Of a stretch of 64,000 nucleotides of DNA, positions 1-64,000 are shown one piece after another. This stretch comes from a virus. The notes under the pieces were generated by a model. That model saw only the letters and a program-made list of their open reading frames with translations. It ran no database searches and had not been told where the DNA came from. How positions within the stretch are numbered: position 1 is the stretch's first letter; each line of letters opens with the position of its first letter. The translations under genes were made by a program, and so were the position numbers. The stretch is from positions 1-64,000 of the IMG/VR virus record IMGVR_UViG_3300049002_000006; one strand, 5' to 3'.

Positions 1-795
1 GTCGTGTTCGGTCATGATGACTTCGCCGGTTTCTTTGTCTCGACGGACGTAGAACATCTTGCCCCCCGTGTCTTTATCGACGACCACGCCCATCGCCGGT
101 CGTAGTTCTTTCGGCGGTCTAGGCATGACCCGCCCGCCCCGCCCTGGGATCTTCTTCGTGAACGTCGGTCTCGGACTTAGGAAGCCGAACACGCCGAGGG
201 ACTTCGACGCGATCCTGGTCTCGAATTCGGCGTCGGCGTCTACGTCGTGGACGTATTCTCGGCTGTCGTATTGGACGTTGTCTGCCCTGGCCCGATACGA
301 GTAGGCGGTCGATACGCCCGTCTTGGTCAGGCCGTCGAAGAAGTGCATGAGGTCGTCAGTCAGTCGGCATTGGACGATCAGATAGCCGGGGCACGTCTGG
401 ACGTTCTGCCGCCGGAACGAGCCGTCTTTCTGGAGGACGTTGTCGGGCATCTTCGGCACGATGATTCGGTCGATCTTGAGCCCGGCGGCCTTTGCTTTCT
501 TCAGGATCTGTTGCCGGATGGCCGCGTTGTTTCGGGTGTCTACTGCGAGGACGTAGAACGGATTTGTTCGGAGCATGACGAGTGCGTCTTTCGCTTGATA
601 GAGGACTGTTCGTGCCCCCTTCGGGACAGGAAGTTTCGCCAACGCCTCTTCGAGGATCTTGCTGGCCGTCGCCGATGCTGGTTGTCTTGTGATGGTCTGA
701 ATCGCTGCCGGCTTCGTCGTGTTTTGGGTCTTCGTTTTCTTCGGCAGTGCCGACAGGAAGTCGCCGAGGATTTTGCTGGCCGTCGCGTTCATCAT
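1..795 (-). CDS. NusG/RfaH-like antitermination factor (NGN domain with insertions), runs off window start
   Basis: Own translation, open from ATG 795 to position 1. FYVLAV..IRQQILKKAKAAGLKIDRIIVP...TCPGYLIVQCRLTDDLMHFF...LGVFGFL resembles NGN motifs (WYV, VVP, FPGYVLV, GVxGF). SD GAGAGGGG upstream. Confidence 0.7.
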   Translation of the reverse strand, partial: MMNATASKILGDFLSALPKKTKTQNTTKPAAIQTITRQPASATASKILEEALAKLPVPKGARTVLYQAKDALVMLRTNPFYVLAVDTRNNAAIRQQILKKAKAAGLKIDRIIVPKMPDNVLQKDGSFRRQNVQTCPGYLIVQCRLTDDLMHFFDGLTKTGVSTAYSYRARADNVQYDSREYVHDVDADAEFETRIASKSLGVFGFLSPRPTFTKKIPGRGGRVMPRPPKELRPAMGVVVDKDTGGKMFYVRRDKETGEVIMTEHD

Positions 796-873
796 GTCAA
801 GGCCCCTCTCTCGTCGGGCGAGTCTCAATCGTTGCCGGCCCGCACGGGCGCAAAAGCTAACGATATAGTGATG

Positions 874-902
874 ATTAAATCACATTGCCCGGCCCGGGGC
901 AA
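874..902 (-). promoter_or_regulatory. sigma70-type early promoter TTGCCC-17-TTTAAT
   Basis: 17-nt spacing with TG extension, upstream of the NusG-like gene. Confidence 0.55.
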
Positions 903-975
903 GAGGCGGGCCGGGCAATTTTTAGCTATTGCAAGAGGCGGGCCGGGCAATTTTTAGCTATTGCAAGAGGCGGGC
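899..975. repeat. 32-bp tandem duplication (about 2.4 copies)
   Basis: GCAAGAGGCGGGCCGGGCAATTTTTAGCTATT at 899 and 931, partial at 963. Confidence 0.95.
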
Positions 976-1173
976 TTTCATGTCCTGTATCACTAGCTCC
1001 TCGAGCAGTTTGAACCTTTCTCTTACAACTTTTAGATACTCGTCGTCCGTTTCCATGATGCCGGTGTCTTCCCACTTACAGATGACCGTCTGGAGTTCCT
1101 CCGCTATGAGTCGGGCTAGTGCGACCATATCACCGGCTTCTGTCCTTGGCGGGTACGACGGGTCATGGTCCAT
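958..1173 (-). CDS. hypothetical early protein
   Basis: ORF in tightly packed leftward cluster. Confidence 0.5.
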   Translation of the reverse strand: MDHDPSYPPRTEAGDMVALARLIAEELQTVICKWEDTGIMETDDEYLKVVRERFKLLEELVIQDMKARLLQ

Positions 1174-1384
1174 GTTGCCTTTCGATTTCGTCTGCTTCCT
1201 GATAGGCTCGAACGATTTGCTCGTCGGTCCGCTTGTTGAGGCCCATCGCCACCCGAGTGAATGCCCACATCCGGATGGTTGTCGGCACTGCCTTGTCTCG
1301 ACCTAGCAGGACGAAAACGAACTCTTCGTCCTTTGCTTTGTTCCAACAGCTATTTAGGTCGTCGATGTTCTCTCGTTTAGTCAC
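1163..1384 (-). CDS. small conserved phage protein (SCxNKAxxxExVFVLLGRD type)
   Basis: Recognisable small phage protein motif; coupled to neighbours. Confidence 0.65.
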   Translation of the reverse strand: MTKRENIDDLNSCWNKAKDEEFVFVLLGRDKAVPTTIRMWAFTRVAMGLNKRTDEQIVRAYQEADEIERQHGP

Positions 1385-1602
1385 TTCTGCTCCTTGTGGA
1401 TTCGGGCGAGATGATTCATGACTTCGTGCAGGTCTTCCATTGTGTGGAAGTTGTCGGGCAGGAGGGCGATCTTGACGGCTTTCGTGAATGTGGTTTCCTT
1501 GCCCTTCACCTCCTTCGCCTCGTCGTAGAACTTCCTGGCCGTCCGTAGCACGGGATCTTCCTTCGGTTTGACACTACTGATCTTCTTACGGACTTTCATC
1601 AC
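1381..1602 (-). CDS. hypothetical protein
   Basis: ORF with SD, coupled stop/start. Confidence 0.6.
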   Translation of the reverse strand: MMKVRKKISSVKPKEDPVLRTARKFYDEAKEVKGKETTFTKAVKIALLPDNFHTMEDLHEVMNHLARIHKEQK

Positions 1603-1633
1603 TTCTTCCTTTTAGGTTGCGGGCGAGTGGTTT

Positions 1634-1939
1634 CTAGCCGATTTTTGCGGACATAAACATATGTCCGCAAAAACGACATATCGGTCCGGACAGGCCCTTT
1701 TCGTGAATCAAGACGTGCTTGTAGGTGGGCGAGTATTCGCACTCAGGTTCCACATAGTCCGCCCGAATCAGTTTATGGACTGTTACCTCGCAGTGTCCTT
1801 TCTTTTTTAGCACCTTACGATCGATCAGTTGGTAGCCTTCCTTCGCCTCGTCCTTCAGGAACCTGTCACAGAAGTCCTGATCACCGCTGCACTTACGGAC
1901 ATCGAACTTGTAGCCTTCTGGAGCGAATAGGTCAAGCAT
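1634..1939 (-). CDS. hypothetical protein with C-terminal CxxC
   Basis: ORF, SD AGGAG. Confidence 0.6.
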   Translation of the reverse strand: MLDLFAPEGYKFDVRKCSGDQDFCDRFLKDEAKEGYQLIDRKVLKKKGHCEVTVHKLIRADYVEPECEYSPTYKHVLIHEKGLSGPICRFCGHMFMSAKIG

Positions 1940-1952
1940 CGTGTTCTCCTGG

Positions 1953-2243
1953 TTAGGCGATCTTGGAACAAAACTCGTGGAGTTTGCCGGCCAGTCCGTC
2001 GGCGAAGCAGGCCAGTCGTGGGTCTTCGTTGATGATGGTTTGCACTTCCCAGGCTTGGGCCTCCGTGAGGTTAAAGGTCAGGTCACACTCGCCCGGCCAG
2101 GATTCGTTGAAGTCCAATCCGACTACGTTGTTGGTTACTTCGGCCTGTTCGAGGACGTCTCTCAGGTCGTCGCCGTGCCGGTATCGGTGGCCGACCCAGT
2201 CGATGGCGCTACGCTCGGGCTTCGTGAGGGTGATGGAGTGCAT
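1953..2243 (-). CDS. hypothetical protein
   Basis: ORF, TAATG coupling. Confidence 0.65.
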   Translation of the reverse strand: MHSITLTKPERSAIDWVGHRYRHGDDLRDVLEQAEVTNNVVGLDFNESWPGECDLTFNLTEAQAWEVQTIINEDPRLACFADGLAGKLHEFCSKIA

Positions 2244-2482
2244 TAGCGTCCTTTCTTGAGTTTCTTCAGGATCTTGTCCTGCTCTTTCTCAGGTAAGTTG
2301 CGAAAGGCTTTGACGGCTTCGGTGTCCTTGCCGTACATTTCCAGGTAGCAGTCGGCCGCCATGTCGATGCAGTCTTTATCGGTCAGCGGCGGCTCGCAGG
2401 TGTGGGCGTCCTGTGCCAGCACGTCAGCGGTTCGTTTTAGTGCCCTTTCGATTCTTACGGGCATTGCGATTTCGGGTGGCAT
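2243..2482 (-). CDS. hypothetical protein
   Basis: ORF in cluster. Confidence 0.6.
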   Translation of the reverse strand: MPPEIAMPVRIERALKRTADVLAQDAHTCEPPLTDKDCIDMAADCYLEMYGKDTEAVKAFRNLPEKEQDKILKKLKKGR

Positions 2483-2503
2483 CGTGTCTCTCAGGTAAGG
2501 GGA

Positions 2504-2818
2504 CTATTGAGGAATCGTGACTGTTAAGTATTTTCGGGCGAGATGACTCTTATAAGGGTATTTAGTGTATTTAATGCTCCTGGCAATGATCTCCGGGACG
2601 TTTTTTGTGATCGTAATGGCACAGCCCATGTCAGTGAGGAAATCGGACATGATGAGCAGTCTTTGCTCGTCTCGGTCGAACCATTTAATGACTAAGACGA
2701 GGCTTTTGTCTTTCTTGTACTGGACCCGATTGAACGTAGAATTATGGACGCCCCACTCGTTTTTTAGTAAGTGGATGACTCTTCGCTGGTTGGGGCTTCT
2801 TTTGTTCACGGCCGTCAC
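2504..2818 (-). CDS. hypothetical protein with IMSDFLTDxG motif (paralog of 7846-8232)
   Basis: Motif shared with two ORFs at 7.5-8.2 kb. Confidence 0.6.
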   Translation of the reverse strand: MTAVNKRSPNQRRVIHLLKNEWGVHNSTFNRVQYKKDKSLVLVIKWFDRDEQRLLIMSDFLTDMGCAITITKNVPEIIARSIKYTKYPYKSHLARKYLTVTIPQ

Positions 2819-3032
2819 TCGGAATAGGAACTATGGAGTAGGACCGGGCGAGGCGTTCGATCTGGTCTTCTTTGTGCCGGCATTCACCCCGGTAATGGAA
2901 GCCAGGACAGGAGCAGAAGACGTAGCCGGTCAGCTTGGACAGCGTTACCGTATGGACTTCACCGGGCTTGCTCTTGCTGTGGTATTTGGCGATGACTTTC
3001 ACGCCGAGCTTCGACGGCCTATCGGTCTGCAT
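2742..3032 (-). CDS. SWIM-type zinc-finger protein
   Basis: SKSKPGEVHTV...CSCPGFHYRGECRH (CxC..CxH). Confidence 0.7.
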   Translation of the reverse strand: MQTDRPSKLGVKVIAKYHSKSKPGEVHTVTLSKLTGYVFCSCPGFHYRGECRHKEDQIERLARSYSIVPIPSDGREQKKPQPAKSHPLTKKRVGRP

Positions 3033-3042
3033 AGCGCCCTCG

Positions 3043-3092
3043 CGTCTAGAATCGCGTTTAACGGCCGATCTATTGCCGGCTGTAGAAAATCA
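3043..3092. promoter_or_regulatory. conserved 50-bp intergenic element, copy 1
   Basis: 37/50 identical without gaps to 52591-52640; both precede leftward genes. Confidence 0.7.
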
Positions 3093-3181
3093 CGCCCCGG
3101 GCAAGATCGGCCCGCAAACGCCGTTTAATCGTGACTGGCGGGGCATTGTTCTCAGCCCCGCTAATTCAGGCCAGCTTTGTG

Positions 3182-3448
3182 CTACGCCCCGTGCTTCGGG
3201 ATAGGTAACCAGCCCTCTTTTTCGGTTTGGAGTTCGTGTCGCCGCTTGTTGCTCAGGTAGGCCGGTTTGCGAATACCGATGCACTTGTAGTGGACAGAAT
3301 CGTTTGTCGGCTGGTCGTAGATCACGCCGAAGGCCAGTTTGCAGGCTTCGCGAGGACCGGACGCCTTTTCACTGCGGAGGGCGATGATCTTGTCAGTCGG
3401 GACGTTGTTCTCGTCTCGGTCCAGGATTCGGATGTAGTAGTACGGCAC
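3182..3448 (-). CDS. hypothetical protein
   Basis: ORF in cluster. Confidence 0.6.
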   Translation of the reverse strand: MPYYYIRILDRDENNVPTDKIIALRSEKASGPREACKLAFGVIYDQPTNDSVHYKCIGIRKPAYLSNKRRHELQTEKEGWLPIPKHGA

Positions 3449-3451
3449 AGG

Positions 3452-3703
3452 TCATTCTTTCGTAAAGATGTCAGGGCGACAGTCTTCGGCGAATAGTTGA
3501 TCGAAGCAGGGCGAGCAGTAGCCGGAGATCAGGAGTTCTCGTTGTTCGGTTGTCAGATAGGGCATCGCCTTCTGGATGAGCATACCGTTTTGCCACTTGA
3601 CGTGGTCGATACTGCCCACTTTGAAAGGCGGTTGTTCTTCGCGGCACTTCGGGCAGCAGATGGTCAGAGTTAGTGGAACGCCGTTCATGGCTACTTGCCC
3701 CAC
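3452..3703 (-). CDS. zinc-ribbon protein
   Basis: CPKC...IQKAMPYLTxEQRELLISGYCSPC. Confidence 0.7.
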   Translation of the reverse strand: MGQVAMNGVPLTLTICCPKCREEQPPFKVGSIDHVKWQNGMLIQKAMPYLTTEQRELLISGYCSPCFDQLFAEDCRPDIFTKE

Positions 3704-4065
3704 ATTTCTAGGTCTCGGATTCGTTCGTCATGTTCGGCCCGGTCGAGTCGCGGCGTCTCTTCGAGGTCTCGTTCTTGGATGTCTTCCGGAGTATGGTCGG
3801 CGTAGTAGGCTTCGAGATCTTCGTCTGACATGCAGTCGAGGGTCTCTTTGTTCCGGATCGCCTCGTTGGCCCGGTCGTAGCTATTCGTGCCGTCATCGGT
3901 CGGACTGACATGGAGCCGGTCGATCAGCGCCTCGATAGCGGAAGCCTCGGGGTAGCCTTCGGCCGAGTGTAGATCGAAGACTTTGTGGAGTGCTTGAAGT
4001 ACGCTCTGTCGGTCTTCGTCAGTCAGAGTCGTGAGGAATAAATCGATTAATCGTTCGGCGGTCAT
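3691..4065 (-). CDS. acidic hypothetical early protein
   Basis: ATG 4065 with SD AAAGGGG, downstream of promoter. Confidence 0.65.
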   Translation of the reverse strand: MTAERLIDLFLTTLTDEDRQSVLQALHKVFDLHSAEGYPEASAIEALIDRLHVSPTDDGTNSYDRANEAIRNKETLDCMSDEDLEAYYADHTPEDIQERDLEETPRLDRAEHDERIRDLEMWGK

Positions 4066-4153
4066 CGTCAGGCCCCTTTCGAGTCTAGATCGGCCCCACG
4101 CCTCGCCAGAGAACAGCCCGGCAAGAGGCGTGAGAATTCGCCGATATCGAGAT

Positions 4154-4182
4154 ACTGTACTGTCGGCGGGCCGGCCTCGCAA
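4154..4182 (-). promoter_or_regulatory. early promoter TTGCGA-17-TACAGT
   Basis: Near-consensus hexamers, correct spacing. Confidence 0.55.
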
Positions 4183-4283
4183 CGTTATTCGCGCCTTTTT
4201 GTCGATGTTTTTTGGCCGCTTCCAGGAGCCCGTCCACTGATAATTACTGTTTCACTCGTTAGTATGATATGGCTTATACCTAC

Positions 4284-4311
4284 TTGACACGCCCACATCC
4301 TCTGTTATAAC
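4284..4311 (+). promoter_or_regulatory. promoter TTGACA-16-TATAAC for terminase genes
   Basis: Near-consensus sigma70, SD AGGAGG follows. Confidence 0.7.
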
Positions 4312-4340
4312 ATGCCCCCGCCCACTAAAAGGAGGAGGCA

Positions 4341-5138: not shown

Positions 5139-5168
5139 AGTGGTAGTAATCTACGAGGAGGGCGAGTC

Positions 5169-5459
5169 ATGAGTTTGGTGCGAATCGAAGCTGAATGGTT
5201 TAGAAAGGCGTTAGAGAAATCACAAGAACGGATGAAGGTACTTATAGCTCAGGAACTAAAGAAAGCAGGACTTAAGCTGATGGCTGAAGCAAAGGTGACG
5301 TACAACGAGGCTCAGCTACCTGGATCAGACTGGGTGGAGTTAGAAGGACAGTTGCCGATGACAGACGAAGGTAGAAAAATCTTGGAGGAGTGGTTAGACG
5401 AAACGTTGTCGAGCAGGAAGCAAGCCGACGAGCCGGTCATCGTGAAGGAGAAGGAATGA
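5169..5459 (+). CDS. hypothetical protein
   Basis: ORF between terS and terL, ATGA coupled. Confidence 0.55.
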   Translation: MSLVRIEAEWFRKALEKSQERMKVLIAQELKKAGLKLMAEAKVTYNEAQLPGSDWVELEGQLPMTDEGRKILEEWLDETLSSRKQADEPVIVKEKE

Positions 5460-6976
5460 ATAAGAAGATGGCCGTGGACCGGATTAAACTGATCCGTAGC
5501 ACCACGATGGAGAGCTACTCCCAATTCGTCAAATACTTCTGGCCGTGCGTCTCGGAGGAGAAACTGTGCTGGAACTGGCACATGGAGTATATGTGCAACG
5601 AGACGCAGAGAATCTACGAACGGGTGTTCAAAGGCTTGCCTAAGGAGTACGACGAGGTCACCAATATCAGTCCTGGGACTAGTAAGAGCACCGTAAAGAG
5701 TGTCATGCCCTGCGCGTGGGCATGGACTAGGATGCCCCACTTCAAGATGATCGGGGCATCCTACGCGGAAGAAGTAGCCATCGACCTGAGTATGAAGTGC
5801 CGAGGACTGGTCACACACGACCGCTTCCGAGAAATCTTTCCGGAAATCGTCTTACGAGACGATATGAACAGTAAAGGAAAGTTCGGTAATACGAAAGGTG
5901 GGTGGCGGCTGGCCGCAGGCGTCAAAGGCCGGATTATGGGTCATCATGCTCATGTGATAGTTGTGGACGACCCGCTTAGTCCAGAACAAGGTGAGTCTGA
6001 GTTAGACACGGCTACGGCCAATAGATGGATTAGTAAAACTCTTTCGACCAGAAAGATCGACAAGGCTGTCACACCAATGATCCTTGTGATGCAGAGGATT
6101 CACCATAACGACCCGACTGCTCTATTCCTCAAAAAGAAACGAGTCCGTCATACCTGCATCCCGGCCGAGATAATGGATGGCAAGATTATGGTTCATCCGG
6201 ACCACCTGCGAAAGCACTACGTAGATGGATTGATGGACCCGGTCCGGCTGAGTCGAGAAGTTTTGGATGATTACAAGGCCGAAGGAGACCGCTTCTATAG
6301 CACCCAATTCTTGCAAATGCCGGCCCCCGACGGCGGCGAGATGTTCAAGGTCGATCGGCTCATCAAGCTGACCGAGTACCCGAAGAAGTTCGACAAGCTC
6401 GTCAGGTTCTGGGACAAGGCCGGGACTAAAGGCGGCGGGGCGTACACGGTCGGAACACTCATGGGCATGGTCGAGGACAAACAAACCAGGAGTGCCCGAT
6501 ATTTTGTCCTCGACGTGGTCCGGCGGCAAGTCGATAGTTATTTCCGGGAGAAGTTGATTGAGGACACGGCCCACAGCGACGGCAGGAGTGTAATCGTCGG
6601 CGTCGAGCAGGAGCCGGGCTCAGGCGGGCTGGAGTCGGCACAGAATACGGTCGGCAGACTAGGTCCGCAACGGTTTGTGGTCAAAGTGAGTAAAGTGGAT
6701 GTGTCAACAGGCGGGAAGATCCAACGAGCCGACCCGTTCAGTTCTCAGGTAAACGGTGGGACAGTATACTACCTGCCCGATAAACCCTGGAACGATGCGT
6801 GGCTGGAAGAACTAGAGCATTTTCCGCACAGTCGTACCAAGGACCAGGTAGATAGTGCGTCCGGGGCTTTCGCCCTGTTGGCCAAGAAGAGGCGGCAGGT
6901 CGGCGGTGTCAGGATGAACAGGTCAAGGGTGTCGAGTTTCGCGGCCCGGGTAGTGCCTCAGTACGCCCCCGCGTAA
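5456..6976 (+). CDS. terL: terminase large subunit
   Basis: WNWH, Walker A-like SPGTSKS, Walker B VIVVDDP, MQR, nuclease RFWDKA...EQEPGSGG...DQVD. Confidence 0.95.
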   Translation: MNKKMAVDRIKLIRSTTMESYSQFVKYFWPCVSEEKLCWNWHMEYMCNETQRIYERVFKGLPKEYDEVTNISPGTSKSTVKSVMPCAWAWTRMPHFKMIGASYAEEVAIDLSMKCRGLVTHDRFREIFPEIVLRDDMNSKGKFGNTKGGWRLAAGVKGRIMGHHAHVIVVDDPLSPEQGESELDTATANRWISKTLSTRKIDKAVTPMILVMQRIHHNDPTALFLKKKRVRHTCIPAEIMDGKIMVHPDHLRKHYVDGLMDPVRLSREVLDDYKAEGDRFYSTQFLQMPAPDGGEMFKVDRLIKLTEYPKKFDKLVRFWDKAGTKGGGAYTVGTLMGMVEDKQTRSARYFVLDVVRRQVDSYFREKLIEDTAHSDGRSVIVGVEQEPGSGGLESAQNTVGRLGPQRFVVKVSKVDVSTGGKIQRADPFSSQVNGGTVYYLPDKPWNDAWLEELEHFPHSRTKDQVDSASGAFALLAKKRRQVGGVRMNRSRVSSFAARVVPQYAPA

Positions 6977-6990
6977 TTCGCCTTTTTCTC

Positions 6991-7019
6991 TTGCATGCCC
7001 CATATCATGCCGATAAGCT
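6991..7019 (+). promoter_or_regulatory. early promoter TTGCAT-17-TAAGCT
   Basis: Spacing and position before 7093 gene, in GGW-free window. Confidence 0.55.
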
Positions 7020-7092
7020 ATCTCTATGTCGTTGTCGGCCGACTGCCTCATCACTTCGGGGCGGGCCGACAACGAAAAAGAAGGGGCCGAAC

Positions 7093-7299
7093 ATGCAAGC
7101 GCAAGCGCCGAAGTGTCAGAAGTGCGGGGCGAATCTGATATATGTGACCGACTTCGCGGCCCCAGGCTGTGGTCAAGCCTGGCGGTGCTCCGATCAGTCG
7201 TGTGCCCGGCCGCACGTCAAGATCGGCTCGACTGTCATCGACCTGTCCGAGCATGAAGATCCGACCGAATACGAGTACGACATGGCCGACGTGATGTGA
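7093..7299 (+). CDS. small zinc-ribbon protein with own promoter and terminator
   Basis: CQKC...CSDQSC; SD AAGGGG. Confidence 0.65.
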   Translation: MQAQAPKCQKCGANLIYVTDFAAPGCGQAWRCSDQSCARPHVKIGSTVIDLSEHEDPTEYEYDMADVM

Positions 7300-7307
7300 T
7301 CCTCATT

Positions 7308-7333
7308 GCCCCGTCCGAAAGGCGGGGCTTTTT
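7308..7333 (+). terminator. intrinsic terminator
   Basis: GCCCCGTCC GAAA GGCGGGGC TTTTT. Confidence 0.8.
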
Positions 7334-8258: not shown

Positions 8259-8615
8259 ATGAAAAAGAACTTCGGATGCCTGGACTGCAAAAGCGACAGA
8301 TTCGCAATGGTCATACTGAAGGAAGAGGTTTGGCTATCAATAGCTGACAAGCACGATTTCCTTTGTCCTGTTTGTATAGAAGTCCGTCTTAAAAGGAAGC
8401 TTACCTGGAATGACTTAAAAGGGTGTGTAGTTAACCTGGACGCTTTAATGGGGATTCACTACTTAATCACTTCCAGTCCACAAGAAATCCTTACTATGTT
8501 CCAGGAATATCAAGCTCTGATGAGTTTGGAAGCCCCTCTCCTCTCGCAAAAGTCAGAAGGATTAAAGGAAAAGCCTCGAAACGCCTCGAAACGCAAAGAA
8601 ATCAACAAAAAGTGA
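8259..8615 (+). CDS. zinc-finger phage protein
   Basis: CLDC...EVWLSI...LCPVCIEVRLKRKLTWND. Confidence 0.7.
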   Translation: MKKNFGCLDCKSDRFAMVILKEEVWLSIADKHDFLCPVCIEVRLKRKLTWNDLKGCVVNLDALMGIHYLITSSPQEILTMFQEYQALMSLEAPLLSQKSEGLKEKPRNASKRKEINKK

Positions 8616-9514
8616 AAAGGAGGAGGTTTCGCCGAATTAGTAGAATAGAACACTAAATATGTTCTCCAGATGTATACTCAATATTAACAATTAGTGGTAT
8701 AACATATCAAAAACGCCGTACCCAAGTCCAACCACTAATTATTTACAGGTAACGGTAGCACAATTCCAGAGACAGGCTACCTCATTACCAATTAATTCAG
8801 CCGGCTCACTCACTTCTGGCCCAAAACAAGTCTTCAAATCCCCTGGACAATCGTTATTAACCGCCCTTTTCCTGCGATATCTCCTGGCCAGAGCACAATC
8901 TCACGCCCTAGGCATAATAACTCAGGAAACCATCGGTTAATGCATTTCCTTTCAAATACCCCTCAGGTTCAATCAAGGACGCACACTTTCCTGCTAACAG
9001 AAGGTCAATAGGACTAATGGTTGAGTGGATGTGTTACCAATAGACCAATCACACACTCCTTCCAGGTAGCTCCTGTGATATGACTGGAAGAGATTCTTAG
9101 GTCGGGCTAGAGAGTCCAGCTACCAGTCTGCGTTCACGGTTAACAGGATATACGGTTTAGGAATTCGAGGCCGATAGGTAGCATTTGGAAGAGGTTAAGG
9201 TGCCAACGGACCAGGAGGGTTCAGCGCTGGTCGAGGTAATAAGGACTTACGGTCGAGCACTTCTTGGAGGTATTTCCATAGGTCTAACCAGGTGGGTTCA
9301 ACCGAGGTTAGACCTATTCGGACTACAGGTAGTATAGGTTTAAGTAGATTAGGACTAGCGGTTTTACCGGTGGTTAAGGGTTCAACAGACCCGGAGGGTT
9401 CATTTGGTCAACAGGTAATAGGTTAACGGTCGCGGTTGATCGGACTAAAGGACTAGCGGTTTCGATAGGTTTGGAGGTTGGTCAAGGGGTTTAAGTGGTT
9501 CAGGAGGAGGTGGA
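8616..9514. other. non-coding region with polar GGW-dense tracts
   Basis: No credible ORF. WCC-rich at about 8700-9060, about 52 GGW on + at 9061-9514, repeated AGGACTA/GGTT words. Confidence 0.75.
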
Positions 9515-9566
9515 AGCAGAAAAGCGCAAAAAAGAGAAGGGCGAGAAATCGCCGTGAGTGTGAACG

Positions 9567-9597
9567 AAAAGAGCCCCGGGCGAAGTGCCCGGGGCTC
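9567..9597 (-). terminator. intrinsic terminator of island gene
   Basis: GAGCCCCGGGC ACTTC GCCCGGGGCTC TTTT on minus strand. Confidence 0.9.
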
Positions 9598-9611
9598 ACG
9601 ATATCGAGATG

Positions 9612-10142
9612 CTACGCCGTCGCCACTTCGGGCACTTTCTTGCCCTTCGCCTTGCCCTTCGGGGCTTCGGCGGCCGGCTTCGTTTCGCTCTCGGCCGCGA
9701 TTAGTTGAGAGACGATTTGCACAATCGGCCCCGCCAGTGAGTAGCCGATGGCCGTTTTGCTCACGCGGCCGTTTCGCGTCATCGTGCCGTTGTGCGGGCC
9801 AGTCGGGCGATTCGGGCCGTACTCGACACTGCCGATGCTTGCGGCCATGTCACGATCACGCACGCCAGTCAGCTTGTCGGCCGCTTCGCCGTTCGCCAGC
9901 TGAGCGCACAAAGCGCTCAGCCACACTTTGAACATGGCGTGTGTGCCAGTGCCCGCCCGCGTGCCGTAGCTGGCGAGTAGCGTGCCCTGATCGCATAGGG
10001 CGTCGTACACGCGGCGGGCCGGCGTGTTCTCGGCGGGCAGGGCGATCATAGTGCCCGGCTGACTGCTACGCCCCGGCCGCACGGGCAGGGCCGCGAGGGC
10101 AGTAGCCAGCATCTCATTCGTCGTCGTGTTCAGCTTCGTCAT
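9612..10142 (-). CDS. isolated immediate-early-like protein (176 aa) in GGW-free island
   Basis: ATG 10142, SD ACAGGGG, own promoter and terminator; Lys/Ala-rich tail. Confidence 0.8.
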   Translation of the reverse strand: MTKLNTTTNEMLATALAALPVRPGRSSQPGTMIALPAENTPARRVYDALCDQGTLLASYGTRAGTGTHAMFKVWLSALCAQLANGEAADKLTGVRDRDMAASIGSVEYGPNRPTGPHNGTMTRNGRVSKTAIGYSLAGPIVQIVSQLIAAESETKPAAEAPKGKAKGKKVPEVATA

Positions 10143-10256
10143 GTCATAGCCCCTGTCTTGTAAGTACGTCATTGTCTGCATTGTGTCGCTCGCCCGCACA
10201 CGCACGTTGCGCGGCAGACGCGAGCCGAGATGTCAGAGAGCGTACTAGACAGAGTG

Positions 10257-10285
10257 ATTAAAGGGGCCGACTAGTCTGTTGTCAA
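10257..10285 (-). promoter_or_regulatory. strong promoter TTGACA-17-TTTAAT
   Basis: Consensus -35, 5/6 -10, 17-nt spacer. Confidence 0.85.
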
Positions 10286-10307
10286 CGATATCGAGTGATT
10301 TTATCAT
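10279..10307 (+). promoter_or_regulatory. overlapping divergent promoter TTGTCA-17-TATCAT
   Basis: Both hexamers 5/6; overlaps the -35 of the leftward promoter. Confidence 0.5.
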
Positions 10308-10485
10308 CACTATTTCGAGCAATTGTTCACTAGCAGTGGTAGCGAATGTCGTGCCATACCCTCATGGTTCAATAGGACTAACGTGATTACTGCCGACAGG
10401 GGGTAATAGAGGAGGATTGGAGGACTCCCCTACTTCGTGGATGAATCTGGAGGAGGGGCATTGGCAGTGAATGGGCAACCCATCC

Positions 10486-10697: not shown

Positions 10698-11102
10698 ATG
10701 AGTGGTAAGCTGCCTGACCTGGCAAACCCCTACAAAACGCGGGCGTTCGACTACGTCGGCACGACCATCGGGGCGGAAGCCACGAACGTTATCACCGTGG
10801 CCTGCCAGCTGCAAACGAGCGACCGGCGGGACATCGCCGAGCGGGCCATGATCGAATGGTTCATCAGTGACGACGCGGCCGGCGACAGCCTGGTAGCCAC
10901 AGCCCCGGACGGCGGCGTGGCCGCCGGGGCGGACGGTTGGCTCAGCCAACTCGTTACCGGAAAACTCGGGGTCGCCGTGTGCGAGGCCGACGGGGATTTG
11001 GACATCGCCATCACCCACGCGGCCGGGGCGAAGACCGTTTACCTGGGGTTCCGGATGCCGGACGGGACTATCCGGATGTCGGCCGCTATCACCTTCGCCT
11101 AA
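10698..11102 (+). CDS. putative virion structural protein
   Basis: A/G/T/D-rich beta composition, SD AGGAG. Confidence 0.6.
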   Translation: MSGKLPDLANPYKTRAFDYVGTTIGAEATNVITVACQLQTSDRRDIAERAMIEWFISDDAAGDSLVATAPDGGVAAGADGWLSQLVTGKLGVAVCEADGDLDIAITHAAGAKTVYLGFRMPDGTIRMSAAITFA

Positions 11103-15487: not shown

Positions 15488-15822
15488 AACTTCCAGATTT
15501 GGTGCAGTGTCCGAAGGTGACTCTATCTAAAAACCTGGACTGCGTAATCGGCCGTCGAGGTGCGCTAGTTACGGCCCGGATCGGGAATGCCGACCTGAAG
15601 CCGATGGACTACGCGGAAGCCATCCGGACCGGGCAGTATCTCATCAACCAGGGCGGGGCGGCGATGCGGGCAGGTGAAATTGTGAGTCGTTTGACCTTCA
15701 GTCACCATCATCTCGAATGCCATCCGAAAGTCCTGCTCAAGATCGGACAGTGGATCATGGCGAAGGGAAGTGAGGCGAAACTGATGACTGGTGACACGCT
15801 CAAGCGCGTGTACGTGGGCTAG
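15481..15822 (+). CDS. hypothetical protein
   Basis: ORF in operon. Confidence 0.6.
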   Translation: MLELPDLVQCPKVTLSKNLDCVIGRRGALVTARIGNADLKPMDYAEAIRTGQYLINQGGAAMRAGEIVSRLTFSHHHLECHPKVLLKIGQWIMAKGSEAKLMTGDTLKRVYVG

Positions 15823-15830
15823 GAGGGATC

Positions 15831-16931
15831 GTGCCGTTCTTCGTCCGGGTTCCGTTTCGACCCCGTTGCCGCCGGCCGGTCTTGTACTCCAAGTCCGGCA
15901 TTTCCGGATCGGCCACGATGGTCGTTGGCGGCGGAACTTACAGCTACACGGGGGCCAGTGTCAACCTGGCCTACGGCAGGAAGTTGGCCGTAGGCGGAGG
16001 TGCTTATACTTACACGGGCGGAACGGTAGGGTTGGCCCACGGCTATAAGGTTCCGGTCGGCGGAGGCGCGTACACCGTCACGGGCGGGGCGATCAATTTT
16101 CTACGTACCTACGACCTGCCAGTAGACGGCGGAATTTATACCTACGTGGGGAACTTAGTAGGACTCAAAAGGGGCTACCCGTTAGTCGTCGGTGGTGGGA
16201 CTTACACTTACACAGGAAGTAATGTCGGTTTGGCTCACGGCTACAAGATTCCGGCAGGTAGCGGGACTTATTCGTACACGGGCGGAACGGTTGCACTAGT
16301 ACGTGGTCGGCCGATGGCCGTAGGTCTTGGTAGCTATTCGTACACGGGGGGCAGTGTCGGGTTGCGGCGGGGCTACCCGCTGGCCGTCAGCGGTGGTACT
16401 TACTTGTATGCTGGCTCCAGCGTCAATTTGCTGTATTCCGGGGCCGGCGACAAAGTGATGAGTGCCGACGGCGGGGCTTATGCTTACAGCGGGGGAAATG
16501 TCAATCTACGCTGGACACGGGCAAGTCTAGGCGTGGGCGGGGGCAGTTACAGTTACGCGGGGGCCATGGTCGGGCTAAAGTACGGTCGAAATCTGCCCGC
16601 AGGAGGTGGGTCGTACAGTTACGTCGGCGGTACTGTCATTTTGCGGTATGGGCACAAGACGCCGGTGACTGGCGGATCTTATGCCTATTCCGGAAGTAGT
16701 GTTGGGTTGTATTTGGGCCGGCGGGTGACAGTCGGTAACGGAGTGTATTCGTACACCGGAAGTTTGGTATCTCTCCGGGCTCAGAGGTATCTAACTGTTA
16801 CCGGCGGGGCTTACAGTTACGTCGGTGGTGATGTCGGGTTGACGTATTCAGGAGAGACGGTGTTCCCGACGCACGGCGGTGGGAAGGTGTTCGAGCCACT
16901 TATGGGATTTGGTAGAATCTGGAGGTTGTAA
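15831..16931 (+). CDS. repeat fibre protein (about 25-aa VxGGxYxYxGxxVxL repeats)
   Basis: About 13 imperfect tandem repeats. Confidence 0.8.
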   Translation: MPFFVRVPFRPRCRRPVLYSKSGISGSATMVVGGGTYSYTGASVNLAYGRKLAVGGGAYTYTGGTVGLAHGYKVPVGGGAYTVTGGAINFLRTYDLPVDGGIYTYVGNLVGLKRGYPLVVGGGTYTYTGSNVGLAHGYKIPAGSGTYSYTGGTVALVRGRPMAVGLGSYSYTGGSVGLRRGYPLAVSGGTYLYAGSSVNLLYSGAGDKVMSADGGAYAYSGGNVNLRWTRASLGVGGGSYSYAGAMVGLKYGRNLPAGGGSYSYVGGTVILRYGHKTPVTGGSYAYSGSSVGLYLGRRVTVGNGVYSYTGSLVSLRAQRYLTVTGGAYSYVGGDVGLTYSGETVFPTHGGGKVFEPLMGFGRIWRL

Positions 16932-19900
16932 GTGATTTCGTCCCGTGTCACCGATGCCCGGACCGTTCGCGGGTCTTTCCAGTCCGTAGCTACGGCCGCC
17001 CTACGGAATGCCCTCCCGACTGCTTTACGGGTCGAGGGGATGCTGGTGTACCTTCAGTCCGACCAAATCACTTATCAGTTGTTGCCGGCCCCCTGGACCG
17101 GAACGAACTCAGACTGGACCACGTTCTCGGCTCTGACTCCGTACTCGATTCCTACGTTCAGTCAATTCCGGATCGCCAACCAAGCGTCCGTAGTTGTGGC
17201 CGGAGACACGATCAGCGGGGCGAAGACGTTCACCTGGGCGACCACTAATCCGGCGAACGTGGCGGCGAACAGTCTGAGCATCCTGGACGTTACGAACGCC
17301 GTTACTCTGGCTTCTGCTCTCGCCGACGACGGGACGCAGGCGATCACCATTCCGACGCCGGTGACGCACGGGGCCGGCGGGTCACACGTCTGGCGGATTA
17401 GCGGACTAGACTCGAAGGGGAACGCCTTCACGGCCGACTTTACCGTCTCGTGGGTCGCGGCATCGAACCTGACGTACTATGTTCGACCGGACGGCAACAA
17501 CTCAAATACCGGACTAGTAGATAACGCCGGCGGAGCGTTCCTGACCCTCCAGGCCGCCGCGAACGTGGTCTCGGTTGGGGACATGATCCACGTCCGGCCC
17601 GGGAACTACGTCGGGGCCCGGCAACTGAACAAGTCCGGCACCCTGTCCGCCCCGATTATCTGGTTGTTCGACACCGGGGCGACGGTTATTTCGACCCGGC
17701 CTGGGGCTCCGACCGACGAGAAGGACGGTATGAACTTCGATGGGTGTGAGTACACGACCTTCACCGGGGCAACGCTCACACCCGACGGCAGTATCGACCG
17801 GGCCGGCATCCGCATGTCCGGATCGGGCATCCTTCGGGGCAACAGGGTCCTAAACTGTACGGTGTCGTCCGGTATTCTGGCCGGCATTTTCACGGGCGGG
17901 CAGTCCGATTTCGAGGTCGGGTACTGCACCGTCTTCGGCATCGCCGGGCCGTCGGACGGACAGGGGCACGCCTGCTACACGTCCCGGACCAGTGACAACG
18001 TTTGGATTCACGACAACGTGTTCCACGATGTTGGTGGGGACGGCATTCACACCAACGGCGGGAGCGGCGGGCCGTCCACTAACTACCTGATCGAGCGGAA
18101 CACCGTCTACCGAAGCAACCTGTCACAGGGCGGCGGGGCGTTGGACTTGGACGGGTTCGTGAACGGGGTGATTCGGAACAATGTCATCTATAATTGCTAC
18201 TCGGCCGGAATCGCCCTGTTTAACGGAGACACGCCCCAGCCGTCTACCGGAAACGTTGTTTGCAACAATTCGATTCACTTGGCGGCAACTTCCCCGGAGG
18301 CCAAGGGGGTGATCTACCTGACCGGGGCGGCGACGGGGAACAAGGTCTTCAACAACGTCGTCTGGTGTGCGAACACGGTCAATGGGGACAGCGGGCAGGG
18401 CGGGTATACAGTCCTCGTCAGCCAAGCCGCGATCAGCGGCGACGACCCGAGCCAATTCGATTACAACGCCTATGCGGACGAGGGTGACAACCAGATTGCG
18501 GTCAATACCGGTCTAGAGGCCGGTCCGGTCCGGCTGACGCTTGCCCAATGGCAGTTCAGCGGGTTCGACGCCCACGGCATCACAGTGGACGCCGACGATG
18601 CCTTCCTGGACTCGGCAACTCCGAATTTGGAGCCGAAGTCCGGAAGTGATTTGATTGATGCTGGGATTGACACGTTCGCAGGAGAGGATGCACCGGACGA
18701 TGACGTGAACGGGGCAGACCGGCCGTCCGGTACCTTGTTCGACATCGGGGCGTTTGAGTACGACGCGAATGCCGTCCATATCACGGCGACGTCCCCCGTC
18801 GGGAATTCAGTCGGAGTTAAATCCGGGGTAGTTGCTTGGACGTATGACCGGGCAATCAGTTCCGCTAGTATCGTGTTCACTCTAGTCGATGAGGACGACG
18901 TGGCAGTTGCAGGATCGGTCGGATACAACTCGGGCAGTCATGTTGCCACGTTCACCCCGACCGATCCTGACGATATTAACCCACTGACCGAGTACACTGC
19001 GACTGTGTCCGTGACGACTACTGTCGGTGGCGGACAGACGATGCCGAGGCCGGCTATTTGGTCGTTCACTACCGCGGCAGCGCCTAGTGTAGGTCCGTTT
19101 AGCCTGTTCGGGCAGTCGGTTCCGTCTATCGCGGACTTTGACGATCCGACTCCTGTCGAACTCGGTACACGGATTAAAGCGTCCTACAACGGCTACGTCA
19201 TCGGTGTTCGCTTTTATAAAGCCCTCCTGAACACGGGCACACACGCGGCCCACTTCTGGACTGTGAGCGGATCGCTTTCCGCCACTAAAAACTTCGCCGG
19301 AGAAACCTCGTCCGGTTGGCAGGAGCAAGAATTCGATACACCGATCGGAGTTACGGCCAACGTCGCGTTCATCGTCAGCTACACCTGCCCGGTCGGACAC
19401 TGGGGGGCCACCCGACCGTTCTTTACTACTGATTTCGTAAATGGTTTATTGACCGGGCCGGTGGACGATCCGGAAGGCTCCCCGAACGGCCCGTTTCACG
19501 CCTACGGCGGTTTTCCTGATACTTCCGTCGGGGCTACTTGGTACGGTGTCGATTGTCTGTTCACAGGACAAGATCCGTACCCTGACAAGACTGGGGTTAG
19601 CATCTTCTCGGCCCTGACGTGGGTGTTTGCAGACGCGGTAGATCCGGTGTCGGTGACGTTCAGTCTAGTCGATTCCGGAGACACTCCTGTAGACGGGACG
19701 TTGACGAACGACGGTCCGAAGAAGAGGTTCACTTTCACTCCGGACGACGTACTGGAACTTAGTGAGACTTACACGGCTTCGGTGTCGGGGGCCACACTGG
19801 ACGGTGGGACAATCACTCAACCGACCGAACAGACATGGTCGTTTACGACGGAAGCTGTCGCCAGCCCGGTGAATATCTTCGGAACAACAGTTCCTGGTAC

Positions 19901-34016: not shown

Positions 34017-34468
34017 TTTCCGCCTCGCCGGCCCGCGTCTTGCAATATTACCTGGTCGCCGCCGGAAAAGCCGTCCTGCCGGCCGCAGGCACGGAAGACA
34101 ACTGGCCGATCACCCGCGGCTTCCTTCCGTCCGGGGAAGAAGACCCGGACAACTACCTTGCCACCTACGACTACGGGGCAGATCAGGAATTCGGAGTCAC
34201 GAACGATTCCCGTAACGACCATCCTGCCGTCCAAGTCAGGATTCGTTCCAGAACTTATGAAGAAGGGTGGGCGAAGGCCGTCGATATACTGGAAGCATTG
34301 AAGGTGATCGCCCAAGATCAGATTTGGACTTCTGTGACGGTCTTGACCGAGACGATCCTCATTCAAGGGTGTATGATCCAGGCGGGTATCATGCACATAG
34401 GACGAGAGGAGAAGGAGACGCGGGAGAATTTCACGATCAACCTGCGGTTAACCATTTCGGAGGGGTGA
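34013..34468 (+). CDS. tail terminator
   Basis: PAVQVRIRS..FTIN; position. Confidence 0.7.
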   Translation: MISASPARVLQYYLVAAGKAVLPAAGTEDNWPITRGFLPSGEEDPDNYLATYDYGADQEFGVTNDSRNDHPAVQVRIRSRTYEEGWAKAVDILEALKVIAQDQIWTSVTVLTETILIQGCMIQAGIMHIGREEKETRENFTINLRLTISEG

Positions 34469-34469
34469 T

Positions 34470-35087
34470 ATGAGCGGAGTCTCTACGGCAGTCAGGAGCA
34501 GCATCAGTTTTCTAGGAAAGAATTTCAAACAGGCCAAGGCACAAACACCGGATCAGGTCGGCTACTACGGCGAGAAGGACTTGGCTGCGGCAAAAGTCGG
34601 GCAGTTGACGACCAGGACGGATAATGACACCGGCACGTTGACGATGGTCACCGGTCACGGGATTACGACAGGAGCCATTCTCGACGTGTACTGGGACGGC
34701 GGTTACCGGGCGAACATGGTCGTTGGGACGGTTGCCACGAATAGTGTACCGATCGACGGCGGGTCCGGAGACAACTTGCCGACCAACCTGACGGCCATCA
34801 CGGCAATGGTTCCTAGTGTCGAGACCGTCGTGATCGTCGGCAACAATCTGAACAATCTGGTCGCAGACGTGACGGACAAGACGGTCCGGGGGCTCGTGAC
34901 GTACACGGACGGATCGGATGTCGTCCAAGCCGCCTTAGAAATCGACCCGCTGATCGGGGCATATCTGTGGGAGAGTACGAGCGGGGTGACGAATCCGCTG
35001 TCCGGAGCTACGACCGCAAAGATCAAATACTCGCACGCCTCGTCGGTCGGGACCAAGAAGGTCAGGGCCGGGGCACTCCGTTCCTAA
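34470..35087 (+). CDS. tail-associated structural protein
   Basis: Position, composition. Confidence 0.55.
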   Translation: MSGVSTAVRSSISFLGKNFKQAKAQTPDQVGYYGEKDLAAAKVGQLTTRTDNDTGTLTMVTGHGITTGAILDVYWDGGYRANMVVGTVATNSVPIDGGSGDNLPTNLTAITAMVPSVETVVIVGNNLNNLVADVTDKTVRGLVTYTDGSDVVQAALEIDPLIGAYLWESTSGVTNPLSGATTAKIKYSHASSVGTKKVRAGALRS

Positions 35088-45819: not shown

Positions 45820-46091
45820 TTCGTCTCCGGTTGCGGTGTTCCTTCTTGAGATTTTCCGAGTAGTCGCAGGATGGCATTTCCGCAAGCGATCATATCCTCA
45901 GCATGGTGCTTGAGCGTTTGTCGGTTCGGTTCGTCCATTACGGTTTGGGCAGACGTGGTACAGGCTGCGGCCGATTCCCCGATTCTGATTCGGTCTTTGG
46001 CGGCTCGGCCCAACGACATCATTTCTGACAGGATGCGATCCGTCCGTCCAATCGTCAGATCGAAATTTCGTTGAAGTTCATCCATCATCAT
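45816..46091 (-). CDS. hypothetical protein
   Basis: Coupled ORF. Confidence 0.55.
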   Translation of the reverse strand: MMMDELQRNFDLTIGRTDRILSEMMSLGRAAKDRIRIGESAAACTTSAQTVMDEPNRQTLKHHAEDMIACGNAILRLLGKSQEGTPQPETK

Positions 46092-46702
46092 AGTCCGTGT
46101 TGGGCGAGCGTGCGAATGTGGTCCGGCGTGACGTTGGCCAAAAACTTCCTGAGAGTCGTTCCGACAATTAACTCCCGAACCTTCACCGTCTTGTTGTTTT
46201 GCTTCTCCCGGAAGATCGTATCAACGGTGAAGAACGGGGCCGGCGGGTGCTGAAACGCCCCGACGTTGACGAGCCCGAGCATGAGCAGGTGCGGGTAGAA
46301 CACGATAGGAACTCGTCCGTTGGCCTGGTAGATCAGCATCCAGGAATGTGATCCGGAGTTCTTGTGGCCTTCCCGGGCTTGTTGCAGGAACGCCTCGACC
46401 ACGGTCTGTCCTTGCCGCTTCGTCTTGTTGACCAAATCGTTCAACTTGAAGTTCGGGTAGCCCCGCTTGGCTTCGATGGACAGCAAGTCGATTAGAGGTT
46501 GGGCGTCCGGCCGAATGGCACAAATGTCGCCGCAGTGGAGGTTGGCCTTCTGCATCCTCTTTCGCCGCATTGTGGACCTGGCTCCGCTCGCCGACGTCCT
46601 CCAGAAGATTGGTTCCTCGTGTCGATCTCCTGTCCACCAGAATGTGAAAACTCGACAGAGCGATCTCTCGAAGGTACTCCCTTTTGCGTGACCTCGCGGC
46701 AT
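46088..46702 (-). CDS. Holliday junction resolvase (PD-(D/E)xK)
   Basis: KGSTFER..FWRT.ASGA..GDI..SIEAK. Confidence 0.8.
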   Translation of the reverse strand: MPRGHAKGSTFERSLCRVFTFWWTGDRHEEPIFWRTSASGARSTMRRKRMQKANLHCGDICAIRPDAQPLIDLLSIEAKRGYPNFKLNDLVNKTKRQGQTVVEAFLQQAREGHKNSGSHSWMLIYQANGRVPIVFYPHLLMLGLVNVGAFQHPPAPFFTVDTIFREKQNNKTVKVRELIVGTTLRKFLANVTPDHIRTLAQHGL

Positions 46703-46711
46703 TTTATTCTT

Positions 46712-61510: not shown

Positions 61511-61752
61511 GTTTTCGTGATTTCTTTAAAGTGATTCGTTCTGAGCCAGTACACGAAGTCCTCAAATAGTGTCATCAGCTTTGGATCTTTGAAACAGAAG
61601 CTCGCAAGCTCTCGCATTGTCTCAGTAGGTCCGCCGTCATGCTTCCATGGAAAATCGTAATCGACGGTTAGACCAAAGTCTAAAATCATCTGGTTCGACT
61701 TGTTCATATGGGCGATTAATGCCTCGAATTTTTCGTTTTTTGGTCGGCTCAT
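61507..61752 (-). CDS. hypothetical protein
   Basis: ATGA coupled. Confidence 0.55.
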   Translation of the reverse strand: MSRPKNEKFEALIAHMNKSNQMILDFGLTVDYDFPWKHDGGPTETMRELASFCFKDPKLMTLFEDFVYWLRTNHFKEITKT

Positions 61753-62690: not shown

Positions 62691-62691
62691 G

Positions 62692-63870: not shown

Positions 63871-63872
63871 AG

Positions 63873-64000
63873 TTATACCTTACTCAGAGGAAGATAAATG
63901 GCCCCGTTCTCGTCGTCCTCGTTCACGGTCACGGAACCAACTGTGAATCCGGTACTTGCGAGGAAAGCGGCGGTATTTCTGGCGATCATTTCACACGATT
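63873..64000 (-). CDS. QueD-like (6-pyruvoyl-tetrahydropterin synthase-like) C-terminus, partial
   Basis: Own translation SCEMIA...VTVNEDDENGAIY. Confidence 0.65.
   Translation of the reverse strand, partial: SCEMIARNTAAFLASTGFTVGSVTVNEDDENGAIYLPLSKV

Follow-up and report, generated by a model that had tools for sequence, protein, structure and literature searches.

Introduction

Phage DNA modification can decide what host RNA polymerase is able to transcribe: in phage T4, whose whole genome is modified, Alc stops transcription of DNA carrying unmodified cytosine. Here we analyze the first 64 kb (the window) of an 82,146-base IMG/VR record from a soil metagenome (IMGVR_UViG_3300049002_000006, hereafter G000), an uncultured phage in which the word GGW (GGA or GGT) is purged from the coding strand of predicted early transcription units, among them that of a NusG-like gene. 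A dependence of the T4 kind may operate here, with the difference that G000 seems to keep short stretches free of a site-specific mark, and on one strand.

Signals on the non-template strand near promoters are known from RfaH and its ops element, from NusG-dependent pausing and from sigma-70-dependent promoter-proximal pausing. The G000 pattern is likewise promoter-near and on the non-template strand, and the phage encodes a NusG paralogue; in those systems, however, elements of 6-12 nucleotides (nt) are present, whereas in G000 a 3-nt word is absent. The Type III restriction sites of T7 are strand-biased and so share with GGW an asymmetric word in one orientation only, but they are 5-6 bp words with a genome-wide bias, and the G000 purge is local, concerns 3 nt and is graded from promoters. 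T4 RegB also concerns a GGA-containing word of early leaders and ribosome-binding sites. Its sites are present in early messages for shut-off; the early messages of G000, in contrast, lack the word and GGU with it, and the purge extends to DNA that does not enter the message.

A further comparison is with the DpdA phages CAjan and iggy. In the accessible text of the two papers, the DpdA motifs are GA and GGC in CAjan and GA in iggy, modified on one strand after replication (PMC7544227, PMC10484667). G000 has a DpdA-like gene beside FolE, QueD and QueE-like genes, and the known motifs are one-strand G-words of 2-3 nt. GGW, however, is not a reported motif, and G000 lacks QueC and has instead a DpdL-type protein as well as a glycosyltransferase-like gene. 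Motif-free early regions are not mentioned in the accessible text of PMC7544227 and PMC10484667, and we found none in CAjan. A graded one-strand word purge is not described in the literature that we searched, which included the accessible text of PMC7544227, PMC10484667 and PMC10516641, supplements aside.

GGW is depleted from the coding strand of predicted early genes

Since WCC (TCC or ACC) is the complement of GGW, WCC on the + strand marks GGW on the - strand. The initial annotation of the window had reported no + strand WCC and about 27 GGW across positions 216-982, and the counts agree exactly (GGA 18, GGT 9, TCC 0, ACC 0). The WCC-free run extends between the sites at 213 and 983, over 770 bp, against an average spacing of 30.9 bp between the 2846 sites counted. 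The gene at 1-795, which encodes the NusG-like protein, is on the - strand, so that its coding, non-template strand is without GGW while the template carries the word. The similar imbalance reported at 3423-4220 was borne out, with 31 GGW and 3 WCC (TCC 2, ACC 1) on the + strand.

We compared each gene with two nulls, in which either the same protein was resampled from genome codon usage or its own synonymous codons were permuted (400 simulations per gene each). On its coding strand the NusG-like gene has 7 GGW, where genome codon usage predicts 37.1 (z -8.0; observed/expected ratio 0.19) and synonymous permutation 24.9 (z -5.7); its template strand is above expectation (52 versus 36.2). The coding strand is depleted in 3691-4182 (-), with 2 GGW versus 19.4 expected (z -5.4), in 3452-3703 (-), with 1 versus 8.1 (z -3.9), and in 6991-7299 (+), with 2 versus 7.2 (z -2.4). 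The gene at 9612-10205 has no GGW (20.3 expected) and also no WCC (18.1 expected). Control for amino-acid and codon usage had been put forward in the initial annotation as the test on which the bias might fail; the bias persists under both nulls, and neither kind of usage accounts for it.

Two further statements in that annotation need to be qualified. A mirrored bias in the rightward gene 7093-7299 has the expected direction (GGW 2, WCC 6), but its strength (z -1.9) is weak when taken alone. Replication genes on the same strand, described as unbiased, come close to being so: 1216 GGW were observed and 1311 expected in the 49 - strand replication-side genes at 42597-79026, a ratio that is still 0.93 (z -4.1).

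The deficit is specific to the word. When all trinucleotides are ranked without prior choice, GGA and GGT take the top two places for depletion in four of five depleted genes; in 6991-7299 GGA ranks first and GGT lies outside the eight lowest. Pooling six depleted genes gives 19 GGW versus 94.3 expected (z -11.3), with GGC raised (107 versus 70.5) and without depletion of GGG (43 versus 50.4, z -1.2), AGG[CG] (21 versus 27.9, z -1.8) or GAGG[CG] (5 versus 7.5, z -1.1). The NusG-like gene encodes its 24 glycines with GGC or GGG throughout; its first coding-strand GGW is at nt 581, and its seven sites sit in the 3' half. Sites that no synonymous change can remove, such as those created by Trp or Met plus certain next residues, are also scarce, with 1 in the 1060 codons of the depleted class, where the other 111 genes predict 15.8 (P 2e-6), so that the proteins themselves have been shaped by the ban on GGW. 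Ribosome-binding sites have changed too: AGGGGC[CT] serves six gene starts, five of which belong to GGW-depleted genes, that of the NusG-like protein included.

Two other origins of the deficit were considered and rejected. Avoidance of internal Shine-Dalgarno-like words does not fit, because such words without GGW are not depleted and the true Shine-Dalgarno sequences are changed to AGGGGCC. Avoidance of a restriction site does not fit either, because the genome as a whole has plenty of GGW (5941 sites with both strands counted), and its loss is confined to certain regions and, within genes, to one strand. As a separate observation on these leaders, those of the NusG-like gene (820-850) and of the gene at 70103-70588 (genome 70600-70650; L004 ~8460-8500) share a TTGCGCCCGT...CGGGCCGG hairpin word, which lies ~40-50 nt upstream of the AGGGGCC ribosome-binding site.

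The purge decays with distance from predicted promoters

Promoters in this work are sigma-70 consensus-like predictions, and assignment to the early class is predicted likewise. Walking leftward from position 4300 in 200-nt bins, the number of non-template GGW from the leftward promoter onward is 0, 2, 1, 2, 2, 2, 3, 3, 3, 5, 4, 10, 8, 6, 9 and 8; at the promoter of the NusG-like gene the series restarts with 0, 0, 0, 2, 3, 2, 3, 4, 3, 7, 7 and 10. Behind both predicted early promoters GGW is thus near zero, and it is normal again over ~2 kb. Expressed as observed/expected ratios, the first three genes of the leftward operon (3182-4182) stand at 0.20, the middle three (1953-2818) at 0.51, the last four (958-1939) at 0.99, and the six genes beyond the NusG-like gene at 0.75. 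This sawtooth runs across gene borders. Codon nulls, per-gene counts and the distance profile together uphold the original description of the bias as strand-specific and promoter-proximal.

The five longest intervals free of the word on both strands (9512-10338, 768-983, 6949-7147, 3024-3199 and 4060-4221) all contain a gene start with promoter-like DNA upstream, the promoters having been read by eye. In four of the five, the both-strand purge stops 5-54 nt from the start codon, so that promoter and leader have the word on neither strand and the coding part lacks it on the message strand alone. A consensus promoter scan omits all five early-type promoters, that of the NusG-like gene because the scan demands A at position 2 of the -10 hexamer; the two nearby promoters that it does list, 4284-4313 (+) and 10279-10307 (+), belong to the opposite, rightward units. 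The early-type units have terminator-like hairpins behind them. A repeat at 885-977, between the leftward operon and the NusG-like promoter, resembles a terminator that would serve both the leftward operon upstream and transcription from the opposite direction, and a terminator-like site at 902-885 (-) was listed in the scan.

Selection acts at the nucleotide level: it is specific to the message strand in genes, affects both strands at promoters and decays in a polar manner. The gradient fits a polar cost, by which a promoter-near site would impair all that lies beyond it, and equally a reader confined to the early phase of elongation.

An island free of the word on both strands

The longest of these intervals coincides with a single leftward unit composed of a predicted promoter (TTGACA-17-TTTAAT, 10285-10257), a 176-codon gene and a terminator (9597-9571). 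Syntenic islands are found in three related phages of 77-80 kb (G001, 15750-17009; G002, 45983-46778; G003, 34140-34807), and in all four genomes the island is placed alike, between the large terminase gene and the homologue of gene 10698-11102. The island proteins of G000, G001 and G002 have 148-176 residues and lysine-rich tails; BLASTP detected no similarity among these three proteins, and in the G003 island no convincing open reading frame (ORF) was seen.

Some non-coding tracts show the opposite composition. At 8950-9510, 10338-10480 and 5139-5389 the + strand is very rich in GGW and poor in WCC (67 versus 29 in 8616-9611; 16 versus 1 in 5139-5389), which gives rightward late transcription a non-template strand crowded with the word. 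A hint of a similar GGW-dense tract was seen beside the G003 island only.

The purge is conserved in related phages

No cultured phage had a DNA match to G000, the NusG-like protein alone had no match in IMG/VR and none of near length in a set of 5.8 billion proteins, and a search of IMG/VR with the large terminase returned only relatives of at most 30% identity. Homologues of the DpdA-like protein, with 45-63% identity, are numerous on ~80-kb contigs; an alignment of these led to 76 IMG/VR loci, from which 15 whole records were compared with G000. These are G001-G003 and 12 more distant DpdA phages.

For each of 326 classes of short words we determined the longest stretch in which the word occurs on neither strand. 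GGW ranks first in G000 (826 bp) and in G002 (795 bp), second in G001 (463 bp, within an island of ~1.15 kb holding 2-3 sites) and fourth in G003, where GG/CC itself is missing over 234 bp. In the 12 other DpdA phages there is no GGW-free island, and GGW ranks beyond 100. The scan also flags low-complexity DNA: a 1051-bp 'ACM-free' gap in G009 proved to be a serine-rich repeat and was discarded.

The syntenic NusG-like genes of G001-G003 are depleted of coding GGW with z of -4.3, -2.0 and -2.8 (150 simulations), weaker than in G000. Their 5' GGW-free runs extend from -103 to +251, from -87 to +103 and from +8 to +231 (354, 190 and 223 nt), compared with -189 to +581 in G000. G001 has the same sawtooth in a shorter form. 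The purge has thus been kept in genomes that range from 44 to 64% G+C, and it reaches its greatest strength in G000. The four purging genomes are most closely related to one another (TerL 50-54% identity), and beyond structural neighbours the gene-content comparison found no gene exclusive to them.

The NusG-like protein

The G000 protein matches the Pfam NusG NGN family PF02357 with E 0.0019 and 19.1 bits, below the cut-off of 22.2 bits; its syntenic orthologues in G001, G002 and G003 score 20.9, 34.7 and 29.4 bits, the last two above the cut-off. A profile of the four proteins matches solved NusG chains with E 3.4e-13, in an alignment that takes in the NGN and KOW parts, the NGN domain lying at profile positions 143-197. 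Positions 244-311, which are represented by the three orthologues only, match KOW-only NusG chains (E 1.3e-4 to 5e-3) and full-length NusG. The C-terminal 137 residues of the G000 protein have only weak SH3-like Pfam matches, and the resemblance to a KOW motif was seen by eye. The NusG/Spt5 NGN domain is thus recognized through the family profile, G000 alone remaining below the cut-off. The NGN family was found in none of the seven other DpdA phages tested, and the purge is absent from a distant NusG-like gene that a 145-kb phage carries.

A second candidate transcription factor is a 168-residue protein (genome 79023-79529) with a weak match to phage sigma factors (phrog_351, E 2.6e-07). Its gene is moderately depleted of GGW, with 14 versus 25.6 expected (z -3.3).

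A predicted gene set for a modified guanine

G000 encodes FolE (Pfam, E 2.8e-65), QueD/PTPS (E 6.2e-33) and a QueE-like radical SAM protein (E 1.5e-22, under curated cut-offs). A DpdA-like transglycosylase matches phrog_887 (E 2.7e-39) and has ~30% identity (tblastn) to annotated phage DpdA/TGT; against Pfam and NCBIfam it had no match. The cluster also contains a weakly matching glycosyltransferase-like gene and a QueD paralogue with the signature LxxxHRHxF (here LRNWHRHIF), which in the accessible text of PMC10516641 is assigned to DpdL. QueC (PF06508) was not found in the 82-kb record, whereas control genomes were positive. With QueC absent and a DpdL-type protein in its place, the predicted base is not preQ0 and may be 7-deazaguanine or a further derivative. 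On the evidence of its genes, the FolE, QueD, QueE-like, DpdL-like and DpdA-like set could supply a mark borne by one strand.

Genome layout and features

The ends of the record share a 127-base repeat, a length that is also common as an assembler word, and the repeat is probably the sign of a circular assembly and not of real genome termini. Terminase and structural genes are on the + strand from 4341. The - strand carries small genes of unassigned family from 4182 leftward, then the NusG-like gene across the origin, and after it replication and nucleotide-metabolism genes down to ~42.6 kb, including a family A polymerase, clamp loader, RecA-like protein, ThyX, UDG-like protein, SNF2 helicase, Toprim and DnaB-like proteins. 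The 117 genes of G000 were called with a simple heuristic codon-score caller. No tRNA or Rfam family was found in the window or in its first 12 kb. Among sequencing runs, the source soil metagenome, as contigs, is the sole one to contain this DNA, and no RNA run is listed with it. The coordinates of the features are collected in Table 1.

Table 1. Features of the GGW-depleted units and associated genes (window coordinates unless marked; promoters are predictions)
Feature	Position	Strand	Description or basis
NusG-like gene, N-terminal 265 codons	1..795	-	continues over the origin to genome 81732, ~360 codons in total
GGW-free run on coding/non-template strand, 770 bp	213..983	-	spans leader, predicted promoter and initial 583 nt of NusG-like gene; gap scan and counts
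Interval free on both strands, promoter and 5' leader of NusG-like gene	768..983	.	gap scan
Shine-Dalgarno AGGGGCC, variant without GGA	801..807	-	5 nt before the ATGATG start of the NusG-like gene
Predicted sigma-70-like promoter, TTGCCC (902-897), 17-nt spacer, TG + TTTAAT (879-874)	874..902	-	by eye
Repeat of ~32-nt unit, ~2.4 copies	885..977	.	G+C-rich hairpins then T-runs, readable on both strands; by eye
Rest of leftward operon	958..3448	-	depletion fading
Interval free on both strands	3024..3199	.	hairpin, promoter-like GTGATTTTCT word, start of SWIM-like ORF 2742-3032 (-)
Start of leftward early operon	3421..4221	-	3 coding-strand GGW in ~800 nt; 4060-4221 free on both strands
Shine-Dalgarno AGGGGCC of leftward operon	4077-4071	-	ATG 4065
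Predicted leftward-operon promoter, TTGCGA, 17 nt, TACAGT	4154..4182	-	by eye
Interval free on both strands	6949..7147	.	predicted rightward promoter TTGCAT 6991-6996, 17 nt, TAAGCT 7014-7019; leader hairpin; Shine-Dalgarno AAGGGGCC
68-codon cysteine-rich gene	7093..7299	+	terminator 7308-7328 behind; GGW 2 vs 5.3 expected, z -1.9
Island without GGW or WCC on either strand, 826 bp	9512..10338	.	one leftward transcription unit
Deazaguanine cluster	61749-64000 (window); 63873-67007 (genome)

Two small proteins encoded on the - strand deserve mention. One opens the leftward operon; it has 124 residues from the ATG at 4065 (3691-4065, -), is very acidic and without a family match, and might be an anti-restriction protein of the DNA-mimic type. 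The second is a small ORF, skipped by the gene caller, that has a SWIM-like CxC...CxH cysteine pattern (2742-3032, -) and begins within one of the intervals free on both strands.

Discussion

The purge of GGW suggests that the DNA is read strand by strand during early transcription, and that what is read is probably the phage's modified guanine. The initial annotation had inferred a mark that impedes host RNA polymerase in one orientation only, a reading that our results support in part. Tentatively, and at somewhat less than even probability, we propose that GGW is the insertion motif of a 7-deazaguanine and that it is not tolerated on the non-template strand of early units transcribed by host polymerase. 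Selection would strip GG(A/T) from the non-template strand of units read first by host sigma-70-type RNA polymerase, and would clear their promoters and leaders of it on both strands. The DpdA-like transglycosylase would insert a 7-deazaguanine-type base at GGW after replication, on one strand. With its Watson-Crick face unchanged, the modified base would remain usable as template; on the non-template strand or in promoter duplex, the mark would disturb contacts of the unassisted host holoenzyme, whether with sigma, core or elongation factors. Later transcription would tolerate the mark, aided by the phage NusG paralogue and the sigma-like protein. We rank this proposal first because exchange of a base on one strand is the simplest source of a strand signal at so short a word, and GGW is comparably short to the known DpdA motifs, which are G-words of 2-3 nt. 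Both modification at GGW and RNA polymerase as its reader are steps that we infer.

Several observations weigh against the proposal. CAjan, a control whose motif is known, has no zone free of GA/GGC: its longest gap on both strands is 79 bp (mean 8) and is not significant. G004 and several other genomes have homologues of DpdA, the DpdL-like protein and the glycosyltransferase but no GGW island, so the gene set alone does not predict one. The polarity is also unexpected, in that GGW is tolerated on the template and purged from the non-template strand, and we are not aware that 7-deazaguanine on the non-template strand has been shown to affect bacterial RNA polymerase. In the accessible text of PMC10516641, DpdL-type pathways are tied to complete replacement of G in phage phiST, together with DpdA3, and complete replacement would leave no motif. 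The early promoters and the temporal class are themselves predictions. Lastly, the NGN gene co-occurs with the purge (in G001-G003, in G000 by profile, and in none of the seven others), which would suit a different reader; the four purging genomes are closest kin, so that this co-occurrence may be one inherited event, and the distant NusG-like gene of the 145-kb phage is unaccompanied by a purge.

That different reader would be the NusG paralogue itself. Reading GGW on the non-template strand, it would leave early units, which avoid the word, factor-free and terminable, with no modification needed. RfaH reads ops and Bacillus NusG reads TTNTTT, both on the non-template strand. Besides the co-occurrence of NGN in four of four purging genomes (G000 below the cut-off, by profile) and none of seven other DpdA phages, the purge is strongest in the paralogue's own gene and early-type units end in terminator-like hairpins. 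However, the single ancestry of the four genomes and the unpurged 145-kb phage count here too, a word of 3 nt is far below the size of known non-template recognition elements, and the purge of both strands at promoters is left unexplained; we consider this reading improbable. An explanation at the level of RNA, in which GGA/GGU in mRNA is the target of a site-specific endoribonuclease or RNA-binding repressor of host or phage, seems to us to have a similarly small chance. It has precedents in T4 RegB, which cuts GGAG in early messages, and in MazF-type toxins, which cut 3-nt words, and it suits a purge that follows the message strand through the 5' leader and the AGGGGCC ribosome-binding site and affects all three reading frames. 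It is hard to reconcile with promoter and leader DNA that is clean also on the strand absent from that message, or with an 826-bp unit free on both strands. A nuclease cut anywhere in the cistron would inactivate it, and yet the NusG-like gene retains seven sites in its 3' half; nor was an RNase gene found among 54 G000 proteins or ORFs scanned against Pfam, PHROGs or NCBIfam, out of the 117 called genes and a few extra ORFs.

The strand and gradient data would also suit another strand-aware DNA reader, and in the transcription bubble it is the non-template strand that lies exposed. This could be a host defence or repair enzyme that attacks the word, modified or not, while heavy early transcription leaves that strand single-stranded, or a phage factor for shut-off that acts on GGW in its unmodified state, much as T4 Alc acts on cytosine DNA. 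We found no candidate gene, the purge of both strands ~100 bp either side of the start site is not explained, and for a shut-off factor the incoming DNA would already be modified, which leaves early genes no reason to avoid the word; we regard such a reader as quite improbable. That the deficit is a by-product of amino-acid composition, codon usage, avoidance of internal Shine-Dalgarno words or foreign gene origin is very unlikely indeed. Choice of GGC and GGG for glycine does explain part of it, but the deficit stays after synonymous permutation within genes (z -5.7, -3.8, -2.8), Shine-Dalgarno-like words without GGW are not depleted while true Shine-Dalgarno sequences are altered to avoid GGA, the sawtooth spans gene borders, and the pattern is kept in relatives of 44-64% G+C.

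The proposal of a modified GGW and the presence of a NusG paralogue can be combined. The phage's own site-specific guanine modification would then act as a strand-aware transcription code: units meant for naive host polymerase would lack the word on the non-template strand and at promoters, and the rest, including the GGW-dense spacers of the late operon, would become readable only after the NusG paralogue and the sigma-like factor had reprogrammed the polymerase. In that case the DpdA motif might be deduced directly from the genome sequence. Taken as a whole, we think this rather unlikely.

Hypermodification of phage DNA is seen as armour against restriction and CRISPR, and to our knowledge its cost for the phage's own gene expression has hardly been studied. 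A graded purge of a 3-nt word from one strand behind early promoters, which has shaped proteins and ribosome-binding sites, indicates such a cost and the strand on which it is relevant. If GGW is the DpdA motif, the specificity of the enzyme would be predictable from sequence alone in uncultured phages, and, if the proposal is true, the role of non-template base chemistry in bacterial transcription would be testable on defined templates.

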